Part shown: positions 21,086 through 25,796 of the stretch, piece by piece
Numbering within the stretch: the first letter of the stretch is position 1
How the letters are laid out: every line of letters begins with the position of its first letter
Assembly (NCBI GenBank): GCA_012838035.1
Contig: DUQB01000159.1
Location: forward strand, 1 to 63,620
DNA length: 63,620 nt
DNA from: Bacillota bacterium
GTDB lineage: Bacteria > Bacillota > Limnochordia > DTU080
Reading direction: 5' to 3'
Notes under the pieces: generated by a model
Database searches by the model: none
Told to the model about the DNA's origin: nothing
What the model saw: the letters and a program-made list of their open reading frames with translations, nothing else
Program-made: the position numbers and the translations under genes

Positions 21086-22099
21086 TCATACCTCCCGTCC
21101 CACTGCGGCGGCTATGGGCTTCAGCTTGGCCATCATATCGGCAAAAACCTGTGGCCGCAGGCTTTGCGCTCCATCGGACAAGGCCTCTTCCGGACGCGGG
21201 TGTACTTCCACCAGCAATCCATCGGCCCCCACAGCGACAGCCGCCAACGACATGGGAGTGACATAACGCCATTTACCTGTGCCGTGCGAAGGATCAGCTA
21301 TTACCGGTAGGTGCGAAAGGTGATGTATAGCCGCGATAGCGCTGAGATCAAGGGTATTGCGCGTCTCGGTTTCATAGGTGCGAATTCCGCGTTCACACAA
21401 TACTACCTGATCGTTGCCCGCCGAAATGATGTACTCGGCAGCCATGAGCAACTCATTGACGGTTGCCGACAACCCTCGCTTCAGCAGAATCGGCTTACGG
21501 GCCAAACCGGCCTCATGCAGCAATGTAAAGTTCTGCATGTTGCGCGCCCCGATCTGCAGCATGTCCGCGTGTTCAGCCACGTCGTCCAGGTCGCGGGGAT
21601 TAACCACTTCCGTGACTACAGGCAGGCCGGTAAATCGTTTCGCTTCGGATAGGATGCGGAGTCCTTCTTTGGCCAACCCTTGAAAGGCATAGGGTGAAGT
21701 GCGCGGTTTATAGGCTCCGCCGCGCAGCATTGTGGCCCCATATTGCTTCACCAATTGTGCGCACTCCAAAAACTGTTCTTCCGATTCGATGGCACAAGGA
21801 CCGGCGATCACCGGTACATGGGTACCGCCGAAGACACATGAGCCTGCCTTTACCAGCGAGCGCTCCTGTTTGAACTCACGCCCGGCCAGCTTGAACGGTT
21901 GCAGAATAGGTACGATTTTCTCTACTCCAGGCGAAACCTCAAGCAGTTGAATCGTCGCCGCCGTTTTCTCGCCGATGGCGCCGATAATCGTCCGTTCGAC
22001 GCCTTCGGAAAGATGTGTACGAAAGCCGAACTCGTGCAAGCGCTCGACCATAGCCTTCACCTGATCCGTGCTCGCACCTTTCTCCATGACCACAACCAT
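21086..22099 (-). CDS. aroF: DAHP synthase (type I-beta with N-terminal regulatory domain)
   Basis: IAGPCAIE, RGGAYKPRTSPY, QIGARNMQNF, LKRG, DPSHGTG. Confidence 0.95.
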   Translation of the reverse strand: MVVVMEKGASTDQVKAMVERLHEFGFRTHLSEGVERTIIGAIGEKTAATIQLLEVSPGVEKIVPILQPFKLAGREFKQERSLVKAGSCVFGGTHVPVIAGPCAIESEEQFLECAQLVKQYGATMLRGGAYKPRTSPYAFQGLAKEGLRILSEAKRFTGLPVVTEVVNPRDLDDVAEHADMLQIGARNMQNFTLLHEAGLARKPILLKRGLSATVNELLMAAEYIISAGNDQVVLCERGIRTYETETRNTLDLSAIAAIHHLSHLPVIADPSHGTGKWRYVTPMSLAAVAVGADGLLVEVHPRPEEALSDGAQSLRPQVFADMMAKLKPIAAAVGREV

Positions 22100-22198
22100 T
22101 GTTTTTCCTCCCTCAAAGTGTTTCTACTGTCCTACCGTCCTGTCATACCACACTGTGGTTTGGGAGAGTCTTTTCTCTTAATTGGAAACCGCCGGCCC

Positions 22199-23299
22199 TT
22201 AGTGGAGATTCTGAAGCACCTGTTTCAACACGGTACCCAACCTTTGGTTCTCATGTTCTTGTCCGATAGTGACGCGCAACGCGTTGGGGCGGTTAAATGC
22301 GGCTCCGGACCGTAAAATGATCCCTTGTTGTAATACCGCTTCATACACCGGCTGACTGGGGCGTCCGACATCGACGAAGATGAAGTTGCTTTGGCTAGGC
22401 CAACACCGTAAACCCAGTTCATCAAAAATCGCATAAAGTTGTGCTTTGCCTGCTTGATTCATCCGGCGACTCTTTTCGACATGCTCCTGATCTTCCAGAG
22501 CGGCTATGGCGGCTGCTTGTGCCGGCGCATTGACGTTAAAAGGTTGCTTAATCCGGTGCAAATCGGCTACTACGGCCTCCGGTCCGATCAGATATCCGAC
22601 TCGCAGACCGGCTAGACCATAGATTTTGGAAAAGGTACGCACGGTGGCAACCGGGTATCCCTGGGCGAGCAACCCCAATACATCCGGGAAATCAGGCGCA
22701 TCCGCATACTCGACGTAAGCTTCGTCGAAAACGACTAAAACGCCGGGAGGTACGCCGTCCAGAAACCGCTGCGCCGCATCGGCATTCACATACGTTCCGG
22801 TGGGATTATTGGGGTTACAGATGAAAACCAACTTGGTGTTCGGCGTAATCGCCGCCAACATCGCGTCGAGATCGAACGTTTCATCCTTTAAGGGTACCGC
22901 GATCTCTTTCGCCCCCAGCACTCTGGCTGCATAGGCGTATTCACTAAAGGTAGGCGTCCCATACATGATCGCATCGCTCGGTTCCAGATAGGTGGTTGCC
23001 AGGAGTAACAGCACCTCGTCCGACCCATTGCCGACGATGACCTGTTCCGGTAAAACGTGCCAGTGTGTGGCAATCGCTTGCCGCAGAGCACGGGCCGCGC
23101 CGTCCGGATAGATATGAGCTGCGCCTAAAGTCTCCTGCATGGCCAGCACTGCTTTTGGCGATGGACCAAGGGGGTTTTCGTTAGACGCCATCTTTATCAC
23201 GTCTGTTAATCCCAGTTCCTCTTGCACTTCGGCAATGGGTTTTCCGGGTATGTAAGGCTCTATACGTGCCAAGGCGGCGCGGCTTTTAGGGAGTTGCAT
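22199..23299 (-). CDS. hisC: Histidinol-phosphate / aromatic amino acid aminotransferase
   Basis: KMASNENP, GNGSDE, CNPNNPTG, DEAY, RTFSKIYGLAGLRVGY. Confidence 0.92.
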   Translation of the reverse strand: MQLPKSRAALARIEPYIPGKPIAEVQEELGLTDVIKMASNENPLGPSPKAVLAMQETLGAAHIYPDGAARALRQAIATHWHVLPEQVIVGNGSDEVLLLLATTYLEPSDAIMYGTPTFSEYAYAARVLGAKEIAVPLKDETFDLDAMLAAITPNTKLVFICNPNNPTGTYVNADAAQRFLDGVPPGVLVVFDEAYVEYADAPDFPDVLGLLAQGYPVATVRTFSKIYGLAGLRVGYLIGPEAVVADLHRIKQPFNVNAPAQAAAIAALEDQEHVEKSRRMNQAGKAQLYAIFDELGLRCWPSQSNFIFVDVGRPSQPVYEAVLQQGIILRSGAAFNRPNALRVTIGQEHENQRLGTVLKQVLQNLH

Positions 23300-23343
23300 T
23301 CCTGGTACCTCCTATGAATCTGTTGGCTCGGGATCAAACCTGT

Positions 23344-23742
23344 CTATTGCTCGGCAGGCGCCAAATCGGGTCTTAAAACCTTGGCTCCGCGGAGGTAGAC
23401 ATGGTTGATCTCACTTTGCGTCAAGTCAGTATTTATATGCATTAAACAACGAATACACTTAGGTAGACTACCGGGTACCGGAATCTCCAAAGCATCCATC
23501 AGCGGCACTAGCGTCAACCCCAACCGTCTGGCGCCTAGAGCGGGAAATGCGGCATTTAGGTCAGGCGTCACGGTAAAAAGGATGCTGACAATCTCCTCGC
23601 TAGACAGCTTGTTTTGTTCCATGATGGCGGCCACAAGTTCTGCTGTCGCCGTCACGATCTCTTCCCTATCGTTGTGCGTTACGGTAGTAGCGCCGCGAAT
23701 GGCTCTGGTAACCCATCGGCGCTGCGGCTCGGATGCCACCAT
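23344..23742 (-). CDS. aroH: Chorismate mutase, AroH type
   Basis: RAIRGATTV, FTVTPDL, FPA, HVYLRGAKVLRPDL. Confidence 0.93.
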   Translation of the reverse strand: MVASEPQRRWVTRAIRGATTVTHNDREEIVTATAELVAAIMEQNKLSSEEIVSILFTVTPDLNAAFPALGARRLGLTLVPLMDALEIPVPGSLPKCIRCLMHINTDLTQSEINHVYLRGAKVLRPDLAPAEQ

Positions 23743-23758
23743 GATGAACCCGCCTCCC

Positions 23759-24193
23759 CTACTTAGATGCCGGCACGGCGCGATGCCCCAAACCTAACGC
23801 GACCTCGTCCAAATGCAACAAGCCGACGCCGAAGAAGAGCGCTACGGCGATATGGTCGCCGCTACGGGCAATACCGACCTTGCCGCCGATGTTTAATCCT
23901 ATAGCCTTCAGCGCCAATTGCTGCAAGGCTTCATGTGCAGCCCCGGCTACGGCGCCCTCTTCCGCATGAGTAGGCGCAATGACCGCTTCTCGCTTGGCCG
24001 CGACCACGGCTCGTTCTATCACGCGCGAGACAGCCGTCAGATAGTCGCCGCCGTAGTCGGCAGCGGCAGCTCGGATACTCTGTCTGCTCAACTCAGCTTT
24101 CATGTCGACTTCTGCTTCACGACTACCGGTCAAAGCCATTTTAATAGCTGCTTTGGCAACATCCCTACTGCGACTCGTTTGCATTGTCACCAT
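23759..24193 (-). CDS. hutP: HutP-family RNA-binding antiterminator
   Basis: ERAVVAAKRE, HAEEGAVAGAAHEAL, GGKVGIAR, LGLGHR; start reassigned to an ATG after GAGG. Confidence 0.85.
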   Translation of the reverse strand: MVTMQTSRSRDVAKAAIKMALTGSREAEVDMKAELSRQSIRAAAADYGGDYLTAVSRVIERAVVAAKREAVIAPTHAEEGAVAGAAHEALQQLALKAIGLNIGGKVGIARSGDHIAVALFFGVGLLHLDEVALGLGHRAVPASK

Positions 24194-24204
24194 CCTCGTC
24201 CGAG

Positions 24205-24425
24205 AAAAATGCAAAAAGCGACACCAGATGGGGTCGCAGGATAAACGGTGATAGCCATTATGAGTTAGTAATTGCCAATGCCTTACCGTCTACCGTGCTA
24301 CCGTCCTACTAGTGAATATAACAACCGCCAAAAAGGGAGAACCAACTCAATCTGTCGTTTCGCCTGCTACAGAACCTGTTAGCTGAGGATCGCCGGAGGT
24401 TTGCGTAGCAGAGTGATGTCTTGTC
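24205..24425 (-). ncRNA. Candidate attenuator leader RNA upstream of hutP
   Basis: Promoter, alternative hairpins, (A)CGGUAG repeats and a terminator-like hairpin plus U5 just before the hutP SD. Confidence 0.5.
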
Positions 24426-24429
24426 GCAC

Positions 24430-24458
24430 ATTATACTACACCTACCTTAGCATCACAA
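24430..24458 (-). promoter_or_regulatory. Sigma-A promoter for the hutP-aro operon leader
   Basis: TTGTGA-N17-TATAAT. Confidence 0.65.
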
Positions 24459-24493
24459 GCAGGGAAGCAGTCTCATCCGCCGGCATCATGCCG

Positions 24494-25225
24494 TTACGCC
24501 TCATTCAAACCTACGGCTCGACGCAGATTACCTAGTTCAATATCTGTAAGGCGCCGACTCCGCCCCGCACTAAGTCTGCCCAAGGTGAGCGGCCCCATGC
24601 CGATCCGGCATAATGAGACCACTTGATACCCCAAGGCTGCGCACATGCGCCTGATCTGACGATTCCGTCCTTCATGCAACTCAAAGAGCAACTCAGTCCC
24701 ACCGGATCGGGTTCGCAGCCGCTCAACTCTGGCCGGCAGCGTAGGGCCATCCTCCAGCATCACGCCTTGCGACCAGTGATTAACATCCTCTTTGGTCGGA
24801 AATCCGTCTACAACTACCCGATATACCTTTTTTACCTGGTAGCGGGGGTGGATTAACCGCTGCGCCAGTTCGCCGTCGTTCGTAAGCAGTAACAGCCCGC
24901 AAGAATCGTAATCCAACCTGCCGACCGGATAGACGCGCTCTGTGACATTCCCAAGCAGGTCGACGACGGTACGTCTTCCCCTATCGTCTTTTGCAGTGCT
25001 CAGTACGCCTACTGGTTTGTTGAGCATGTAGTAAACAAACGGCTCGATTCGGGCGAGCAAGCGTCCCTCAACTGCGACTTGGTCATACTCCGGCTCGACT
25101 ATGACCCCCATTTCGCGCACAGTTGCGCCATTAACCGTTACTTTGCCCTCACGAATCAGCCTTTCAGCGCCCCGACGCGAAGCTATCCCACAAGCTGCGA
25201 TGTATTTTTGCAAACGTATGCCCAT
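24494..25225 (-). CDS. rluB: 23S rRNA pseudouridine synthase B (S4 domain)
   Basis: RLQKYIAACGIASRR, YPVGRLDYDS, LHEGRNRQIRRM; follows scpB as in other Firmicutes. Confidence 0.93.
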   Translation of the reverse strand: MGIRLQKYIAACGIASRRGAERLIREGKVTVNGATVREMGVIVEPEYDQVAVEGRLLARIEPFVYYMLNKPVGVLSTAKDDRGRRTVVDLLGNVTERVYPVGRLDYDSCGLLLLTNDGELAQRLIHPRYQVKKVYRVVVDGFPTKEDVNHWSQGVMLEDGPTLPARVERLRTRSGGTELLFELHEGRNRQIRRMCAALGYQVVSLCRIGMGPLTLGRLSAGRSRRLTDIELGNLRRAVGLNEA

Positions 25226-25274
25226 ACTCATCCCTTCTCGTGTTCTTTCGGGTATGCAGAAACCGTCGGTCAAC

Positions 25275-25314
25275 AAAAAGGAAAGACCACCCCGACGACC
25301 GGGAGAGTCTTCCC
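25275..25314 (-). terminator. Intrinsic terminator after ytfJ
   Basis: GGAAGAC..TCCC/GGGG..GTCTTTCC hairpin followed by TTTTT. Confidence 0.65.
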
Positions 25315-25370
25315 TATAACGTGCTGACAATCCTGCTATGCGGCAGGTGAACCGGAAAAACCAGTTTGAA

Positions 25371-25796
25371 CTAGAGGTCCAGATCGGTAAAACCAGCAGG
25401 TACCTTGGACCGGTTGTTCTTCCCGCCACCGATCATACCCTGCAGTTGTTCCAAAATGCGCGGGGCCATATCAATCAGCCGATCGACTACGACATTGCCT
25501 TCAATAGGTAAGAGACGAACCTGGCCCTGACCTACCACTAGAAATGAGACCGGGTTCACCGAAATGCCTGCACCTGCGCCACCGCCAAAGGGGAAGCCCT
25601 TTTGCTCTTTCTTCTCTTCGACTTCGTATTCGGTACCCCCGGCGGCAAAGCCCAAGCTGATGCGCGAAACCGGTACAATTACGCTACCATCAGGTGTTTC
25701 AACCGGATCGCCCAGTATGGTGTTTACATCTACCATCGACTTGATGCTTTCCATCGCCGTCTGCATTAAGCCCTCAATAGGGTGTTTACCCTCCAA
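25371..25796 (-). CDS. ytfJ: Sporulation/germination protein YtfJ (GerW family)
   Basis: HPIEGLMQTAMESIKSMVDVNTILGDPV, GGGAGAGISV.P; TTG start after AAGGAGG. Confidence 0.92.
   Translation of the reverse strand: MEGKHPIEGLMQTAMESIKSMVDVNTILGDPVETPDGSVIVPVSRISLGFAAGGTEYEVEEKKEQKGFPFGGGAGAGISVNPVSFLVVGQGQVRLLPIEGNVVVDRLIDMAPRILEQLQGMIGGGKNNRSKVPAGFTDLDL

Follow-up and report, generated by a model that had tools for sequence, protein, structure and literature searches.

To our knowledge, few amino-acid-sensing RNA-binding attenuation proteins have been described, TRAP and HutP being the textbook cases, and the only role of the latter known to us is antitermination, activated by histidine, in a catabolic operon of Bacillus. 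In the B. subtilis protein, His73, His77 and His138 reportedly constitute the L-histidine/Mg2+ site, with His73 and His77 said to serve as the Mg2+ ligands. A comparable case from a biosynthetic operon is provided by PyrR and the pyr attenuators, where the ligand-activated protein binds the leader and shifts it from the antiterminator to the terminator state, much as in the mechanism advanced below; PyrR, however, has a phosphoribosyltransferase fold and recognizes a structured stem-loop, as against the single-stranded tandem repeat considered here. TRAP (MtrB) is an 11-mer ring that, in the trp leader of B. subtilis, reads 9–11 NAG triplets separated by 2–3-nt spacers. These triplets form the 5' strand of the antiterminator, such that binding results in the formation of the terminator, and extra TRAP sites over ribosome-binding sites provide translational control. 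HutP of B. subtilis forms a D3 hexamer, each face of which binds three XAG triplets separated by 4 nt, i.e., at a triplet period of 7 (PMC2425495). In a 2025 review of RNA-binding antiterminators, HutP is given a role in hut alone.

Here, we report on a leader within a 63,620-nt stretch of DNA (the window, which denotes the whole stretch that was analysed), for which we think it reasonably probable, from its sequence and predicted folding, that it is a TRAP-like negative attenuator run by a paralogue of HutP, the probable ligand of which is an aromatic amino acid. A full-text literature search recovered no paper connecting the HutP family with aromatic genes and no description of such a TRAP-like switch.

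The HutP-like protein and its operon

The leader precedes a gene of the HutP family (PF09021) on the minus strand, which encodes a protein of 141 aa (23759–24184; ATG at 24184, with the ribosome-binding site GAGGA at 24197–24193) and which, like hutP in B. subtilis, is the first gene of its operon. The genes of the two operons are otherwise quite different: hut genes are the neighbors there, whereas none is found beside the hutP-like gene of the window. Instead, after a gap of 16 nt, Pfam matches identify on the same strand aroH, coding for a type I chorismate mutase (23742–23344), a hisC-type aminotransferase gene (23299–22199), aroF, coding for a DAHP synthase with an FXD domain (22099–21086), and tyrA, coding for a prephenate dehydrogenase with an ACT domain (21084–19981), with cmk located downstream of tyrA. 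The gene order hutP-like, aroH, hisC, aroF, tyrA is conserved in relatives. In those from the same order or class, the synteny extends upstream (ytfJ, rluB, hutP-like, aroH, hisC), and aroH lies at most 250 nt after the hutP-like gene in 115 of 149 related loci.

The PF09021 match covers profile positions 1–128 of 128 with a score of 150.2 bits against a cut-off of 25, as compared to 111 bits for B. subtilis HutP itself, and no other gene of the genome matches this profile. At the level of structure, the computed AlphaFold2 monomer model (pLDDT 93, pTM 0.88) is predicted to adopt the HutP fold: ranks 1–11 of a Foldseek search are all HutP chains (TM 0.65–0.77; E down to 4e-8), with the B. subtilis structures (PDB 1VEA, 1WMQ and 1WPV) at a TM of 0.72–0.77. 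The lengths of the two proteins are likewise similar (~140–150 aa); their sequence identity is only 19–25%. Searches of the PDB sequences, by phmmer with the protein and with a profile of its clade, found no HutP; the link to it needed hhalign and the fold comparison. Similarly, the NCBIfam HutP equivalog model NF002838, which B. subtilis HutP matches with 253 bits against a cut-off of 155, does not match the window protein.

In the hhalign alignment (25% identity), His73 and His77 of B. subtilis HutP correspond to Gly77 and Gly81 of the window protein, which are invariant in 62 members of the clade; the alignment of the C-terminal His is unreliable. The clade comprises 4948 clusters at 90% identity (E<=0.001), is unusually conserved, with members being ~60–70% identical, and is spread across Limnochordia, Peptococcaceae, Desulfotomaculales, Carboxydothermus, Syntrophomonas and Heliorestis. 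By analogy, we assume the hexamer and the RNA contacts to be as in B. subtilis HutP, and we presume from the genomic context that the HutP-like protein is the trans-acting RNA-binding regulator of the operon. The same genome also encodes TRAP (MtrB, PF02081, 133 bits; C51:8930–9127, plus strand, outside the window). A strict regular expression specifying at least seven (G/U)AG triplets with 2–3-nt spacers retrieved no array in this genome.

Leader layout and a repeat with a period of 8 nt

The leader spans ~230 nt of the minus strand between a promoter and the HutP-family gene, with rluB, whose 3' end is at 24494, lying upstream of the promoter. The original prediction, made from the letters of the sequence, had placed a sigma-A promoter at 24430–24458, and a sigma-70-type promoter is indeed found there (TTGTGA at 24458–24453, a 17-nt spacer and TATAAT at 24435–24430; 10/12 consensus matches). 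The promoter pattern alone is at chance level (one found versus 1.0 expected); the promoter is 93% identical in L103, the locus of the closest relative, which has 88% protein identity. The transcript probably starts near 24423.

Two stems that had been pointed out in the leader were likewise recovered by an inverted-repeat scan of the minus strand. The 5' hairpin, I2 (24364–24411), has the perfectly complementary 7-nt arms CUGCUAC/GUAGCAG (24411–24405 with 24370–24364); it is stable and present in every predicted fold. The second, I1 (24261–24349), is a 9-nt stem (24349–24341 with 24269–24261; 89% complementary) that encloses the repeats. The claim that it loops them out agrees with the predicted fold with repeats blocked, in which I1 forms, and finds no counterpart in L103, where the leader alignment retains neither I1 nor I2. 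Conservation, which had been named as a check on both stems and repeats, is thus seen for the repeats, which are 88% identical in L103 and recur in other relatives, and not for the stems.

Folding further predicts an intrinsic terminator (24205–24237, minus strand), wherein GCGAC (24237–24233) pairs with GUCGC (24222–24218) and 24231–24230 with 24225–24224 around an AUCU loop, followed by U5 (24217–24213), GCA and a second U5 (24209–24205). It is weak (dG ~ -9 kcal/mol) with an internal mismatch, because of which it falls below the consensus of a terminator scan that called no terminator in the leader. The terminator-like hairpin followed by U5 had also been foreseen, and its GUCGCUUUU is invariant in five out of five related leaders. 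The leader as a whole folds no better than shuffled sequence (z -1.2).

The original prediction saw neither a T-box nor a familiar riboswitch, and both were rejected on running the Rfam check: the covariance models gave no relevant match at E<=10 in 23000–25500, and Rfam 15 gave no relevant family at E<=1 in 15 related loci. We also observed a 23-codon ORF, MAITVYPATPSGVAFCIFLGRGW (24188–24256 of the window, minus strand; AUG near 24256), which crosses the terminator and includes Tyr, Phe and Trp codons. Since it is without a ribosome-binding site and its AUG is missing in L103, it is probably untranslated, and a leader peptide was rejected as a candidate. An upstream counterpart of site I was sought in the window leader, where only irregularly spaced NAGs were found (24370–24343).

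The leader further contains the array UAG-UAGGACGG-UAGCACGG-UAGACGG-UAAGG (24281–24311, minus strand), a putative HutP-like binding site that is also predicted to provide the 5' strand of an antiterminator. Its triplets are UAG at 24311–24309, 24308–24306, 24300–24298 and 24292–24290, and AAG at 24284–24282. The last four are exactly 8 nt apart, with their AG dinucleotides at 24307–24306, 24299–24298, 24291–24290 and 24283–24282. Thus, the UAG-containing repeats that had been noted upstream of a hutP gene are borne out, with the addition of a regular spacing. As with HutP, the predicted target consists of at least three regularly spaced NAG triplets; the period is 8 here versus 7 in B. subtilis, and the array lies upstream of the regulator gene, in contrast to the regulatory RNA of the hut operon, which lies downstream of it, between hutP and hutH.

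Several statistics set this repeat apart from chance occurrences. The pattern AGNAYGGNAGNAYGGNAG, with at most one mismatch, occurs twice in the window against an expectation of 0.06, and none of 100 shuffles reached two; in the entire 3.7-Mb genome, this leader alone has a 14/14 match to the core. Comparisons across many Clostridia-type Bacillota give the repeat consensus G-YAG-R-AYGG, present in at least three copies and confined to the sense strand, in front of hutP-like, aroF or aroH genes. The 17-position pattern, at a threshold of at least 14/17, has 65 sense versus 0 antisense positions in 102 loci, and the 14-position core, at a threshold of at least 13/14, has 63 versus 2 in 167 related loci (978 kb). 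All but three of these 63 sense matches (60/63) fall within 400 nt upstream of aroF (31), a hutP-like gene (25) or aroH (4). A pattern-free test on 179 upstream regions points the same way: triple AG dinucleotides are enriched at period 8 only (52 observed versus 15.7 expected; z 7.4), with no AG-triplet enrichment in these regions at the periods 5–6 of TRAP or 7 of B. subtilis HutP.

The exact pattern matches in relatives adjoin a hutP-like gene in 7/7 genuine cases; a further one, in G048, was rejected as a false positive, being a purine-rich simple repeat away from aromatic genes. Most relatives from the same order or class have three tandem NAGGAYGG units in the leader (e.g., CAGGACGGCAGGACGGCAGG). 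Of 61 relatives from the class, 53 have TRAP and 22 have the hutP-like gene; the occurrence of the period-8 motif follows that of the latter gene, beside which the motif lies. A look-alike of the motif, CAUUACGGUAGAACGGAAY (12/14 of the core), was observed within the aroH coding sequence of L017, L032, L040, L042, L049, L050 and L053, at about +456 to +514 from the hutP-like start; the sequence codes for ITVERN, a conserved motif of AroH, and is to be excluded from site scans.

The predicted switch and the sign of regulation

In the minimum-free-energy fold of the window leader, the repeats (24302–24276) pair with 24260–24232, and the terminator is absent. The predicted antiterminator 3' strand, or anti-arm (24232–24260, minus strand, from the predicted pair list), includes the 5' arm of the terminator. 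With the repeats constrained to remain single-stranded, as a mimic of bound protein, the terminator forms, with the ensemble probability of its pairs rising from 0.005 to 0.96. A sliding 27-nt block restored the terminator only if it covered 24324–24271 or the anti-arm, and never when placed over the 5' hairpin region.

A similar behavior is predicted for several related leaders: in L103, L086, L089, L090 and L091, the terminator is absent from the minimum-free-energy fold and complete with the repeats blocked, and in L094 it is partly formed (9/14 pairs) until they are blocked. A counter-example is L105, in which the repeat helix abuts the terminator without overlapping it. In many Peptococcaceae aroF leaders, the terminator is formed in both predicted states. 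In family f3, the third repeat unit has become GGAGAGC, thereby matching the 5' arm GCUCUCC of that clade's terminator.

Against L103, the identity by segment is 93% for the promoter, as noted above, 54% for the 5' part (24423–24312), 88% for the repeats, 57% for the linker and 84% for the anti-arm and terminator together. Two substitutions in the antiterminator helix of L103 preserve pairing (A-U to G-U and U-A to U-G), both of them one-sided, such that the conservation of this helix is judged from one-sided substitutions in one close relative. The material for covariation in the window-type helix consists of L103/L104 and L105–L107; a public metagenome scan for closer relatives returned none above 67% protein identity. 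A relative at 73% protein identity (L108:2560–2640 and L109:1550–1630) was observed to have a very short leader with only one UAG and a strong terminator, GCGACGG-UUG-CCGUCGC followed by U5, which has its 3' arm and U-tract in common with the window through conservation.

Starting from the computed features, namely the sequence elements, their conservation, the specificity for aromatic leaders and the HutP fold, we infer the binding, sign, ligand and oligomeric state in the following plausible mechanism. In the free RNA, the period-8 array (24311–24281) would pair with 24260–24232, hiding the 5' arm of the terminator and allowing read-through. The product of the first gene, the HutP-fold protein, would be activated by a compound at the end of the pathway, with tyrosine and/or phenylalanine as the most likely candidates, and would bind the NAG triplets and keep them single-stranded. 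The terminator (24237–24218, followed by the U-run) would then form, with transcription stopping near 24213. The site upstream of aroF (22142–22124) would add further repression, probably at the level of translation, of DAHP synthase, with which the pathway begins, and the HutP-like protein would also regulate its own synthesis. The regulated genes, comprising the pathway entry, chorismate mutase, aminotransferase and prephenate dehydrogenase, suggest Tyr and/or Phe as the ligand.

As for the sign, on which the original prediction took no position, the dereplicated sites number 53. Thirteen of these overlap a ribosome-binding site or start codon, be it that of aroF, of aroH or of the hutP-like gene, and hence binding at these should repress; 32 are more than 60 nt upstream with an intervening U-run, and 7, from high-GC genomes, are without one, there being high-GC relatives with the repeats present and the U-rich terminator absent. 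This occupancy of ribosome-binding sites, taken with the folding result, points to negative control as in TRAP and opposite to B. subtilis HutP, i.e., predicted termination and translational repression rather than antitermination. The proposed system resembles TRAP in silico in having NAG triplets as the antiterminator 5' strand, binding that leads to the terminator, additional sites over ribosome-binding sites and a target in aromatic amino acid metabolism. It differs in the unrelated fold (PF09021 versus PF02081), in having 3–5 triplets with 5-nt spacers and in being directed at the common pathway and the tyrosine branch (aroF, aroH, tyrA) as opposed to the trp genes.

An opposite sign would follow if the protein were a positive regulator in the manner of B. 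subtilis HutP, its binding promoting read-through or translation, for instance on a build-up of chorismate or prephenate. All characterised HutP proteins are antiterminators (PMC12591593), a copy of the motif at C90:101 is placed HutP-style in the 3' arm of a terminator-like hairpin, and the aroF ribosome-binding site is paired in both predicted states in the window and in L103, so that binding could in principle open rather than close it. Yet the free window RNA already favors the antiterminator, and it is the blocking of the repeats that creates the terminator; moreover, a protein bound at the sites overlapping ribosome-binding sites or start codons would block initiation, and end-product repression is the norm for biosynthetic operons. 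We therefore see positive regulation as unlikely. Alternatively, the repeats might be read by TRAP or an unknown protein, with the hutP-like gene being merely a neighbor; after all, the genome encodes TRAP, a regulator of aromatic genes in Bacillus that recognizes (G/U)AG triplets. However, TRAP needs many triplets with 2–3-nt spacers, in place of the 4–5 triplets with 5-nt spacers found here, periods 5–6 are not enriched, and TRAP is far more widespread among the relatives than the motif, which follows and adjoins the hutP-like gene. On the grounds of spacing, copy number and phyletic pattern, TRAP itself was rejected as the reader, and the probability left for this reading as a whole is very slight.

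Within the leader, the original prediction had proposed a complete anti-antiterminator/antiterminator/terminator logic, with GUAGCAGG (24370–24363) and CCUGCGAC (24240–24233) forming the antiterminator and the 5' hairpin serving as the anti-antiterminator; on this scheme, the repeats would be a landing pad for the protein only. The 7/8 complementarity between the two octamers is real and the hairpin perfect. The 5' segment is nonetheless only 54% identical in L103, with neither an equivalent hairpin nor a complementary octamer there; no predicted conformer has the hairpin open, and the terminator is never released by blocking it; and an 8-bp helix closing a ~120-nt loop is far weaker than the ~23-bp helix between the repeats and the anti-arm. 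The poor conservation and the lack of an effect of blocking leave the anti-antiterminator role of the hairpin unsupported, and this scheme appears highly improbable to us. What survives of the proposed logic is a leader with a terminator and an antiterminator, wherein the UAG repeats are the likely site of the HutP-family protein encoded directly downstream, a view strongly backed by the comparative data. No greater probability attaches to a protein-independent element, be it a riboswitch for a small molecule, an attenuator with a leader peptide or simply a leaky terminator at which read-through from rluB would also end. In its favor, the terminator is 280 nt downstream of rluB, and the small ORF with its Tyr, Phe and Trp codons crosses it. 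Against it, the leader has its own conserved promoter, the ORF has no ribosome-binding site and loses its AUG in L103, neither the window nor the 15 related loci have an Rfam match, and the conserved part is a simple tandem repeat found in varied contexts, both in attenuators and over ribosome-binding sites, rather than a folded aptamer core.

Returning to TRAP-like negative attenuation by the HutP-like protein, a wider proposition, which we hold to be about evenly poised, is that this large, highly conserved HutP branch constitutes a hitherto undescribed type of RNA-binding attenuation protein, one that serves the common aromatic pathway by sensing an end product, probably Tyr and/or Phe, in functional convergence with TRAP. 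It would read G-YAG-R-AYGG at an 8-nt period and repress its own synthesis along with that of DAHP synthase and chorismate mutase, either through the terminator or through occlusion of ribosome-binding sites. It would also split the pathway with a coexisting TRAP, the latter taking the Trp branch and the HutP-like protein the entry and the Tyr branch. If this is true, the role of most of the HutP family would be to regulate aromatic pathway entry negatively, in the manner of TRAP, across a very wide range of anaerobic Bacillota, with differences in ligand pocket and repeat spacing and with control of both transcription and translation. Thousands of genes labeled "hut operon positive regulator" would then need reannotation, the control of DAHP synthase and chorismate mutase in Clostridia would be explained, and a compact pair of a 141-aa protein and a ~25-nt RNA would be at hand for the study of opposite regulatory outputs from one fold.

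The aroF site and further occurrences of the motif

The second repeat site of the window, CAGGACGGUAGGACAGUAG (22124–22142, minus strand), is 9 nt upstream of the aroF ribosome-binding site, GAGGGAGG (22114–22107), and 43 nt before the start codon (ATG at 22099). With 13/14 of the core, it is among the next-best matches in the 3.7-Mb genome after the leader. In both the window and L103, a hairpin is predicted that has the repeats in its loop and the ribosome-binding site within its stem, and the latter is predicted to be paired with or without the repeats blocked. G002 and G005 have a different GC-rich closing stem at the equivalent position. Repeats in a loop closed by a stem thus look like a recurrent predicted layout, with which stem I1 in the blocked conformer fits, although L103 does not retain this stem.

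The aroF site is conserved in L103, L106 and L109. Among genomes of the same family, the three with an examined hisC–aroF junction (G001, G002 and G005) have a four-unit aroF site merged with the ribosome-binding site. The hutP-like leaders of G001, G002, G004 and G005 (L082–L085, L170–L172) are short and without repeats, and hence the leader site is not universal. Since G001, G002 and G005 keep the aroF site despite their repeat-less leaders, the aroF site looks like the ancestral core of the regulon, with the leader attenuator being a lineage-specific addition, as judged from these sequence comparisons.

Beyond these, a set of Peptococcaceae/Desulfotomaculales aroF leaders (L005, L006, L008, L013, L015, L016, L020, L030, L034, L036, L044, L062 and L068) shares a conserved layout of one or two repeat clusters, ~70 nt apart and ending in YAGGGGGGCGAUA, followed by a small hairpin, a terminator CACUCC-loop-GGAGUG and a U-run. 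The two clusters resemble sites I/II of the B. subtilis hut RNA and make these leaders a good candidate for an Rfam-style family; the pairing of clusters at this distance in Peptococcaceae aroF leaders is compatible with a protein having two RNA-binding faces. In Pelotomaculum-type loci (e.g., L007, L012, L015, L019, L023, L026 and L027), the hutP-like leaders are without repeats, and a hairpin CACUCC-loop-GGAGUG followed by UAUUUUAAUU is found 40–70 nt upstream of the hutP-like gene, resembling the terminator of their aroF leaders.

Elsewhere in the genome, outside the window, UAGGAUGGUAGAAAGGAAG (C205:43643–43661, plus strand; 13/14 of the core) overlaps the ribosome-binding site of a gene of the tryptophanase/tyrosine phenol-lyase family (NCBIfam PRK13238, 516 bits); the match could be due to chance, or the regulon could have a third member here. 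A hairpin resembling a terminator, UGUGCCGUCCUACC...GGUAGGAUGGCACA followed by UCAUUUUU, is likewise seen outside the window, at C90:80–135 (plus strand) and C234:1–50 (minus strand), upstream of a gene for a thioredoxin-like/DsbD-like membrane protein. Its 3' arm matches the repeat motif at 13/14, a layout like that of HutP in having the site inside the terminator. Finally, pheA was located at a contig end (C209:91).
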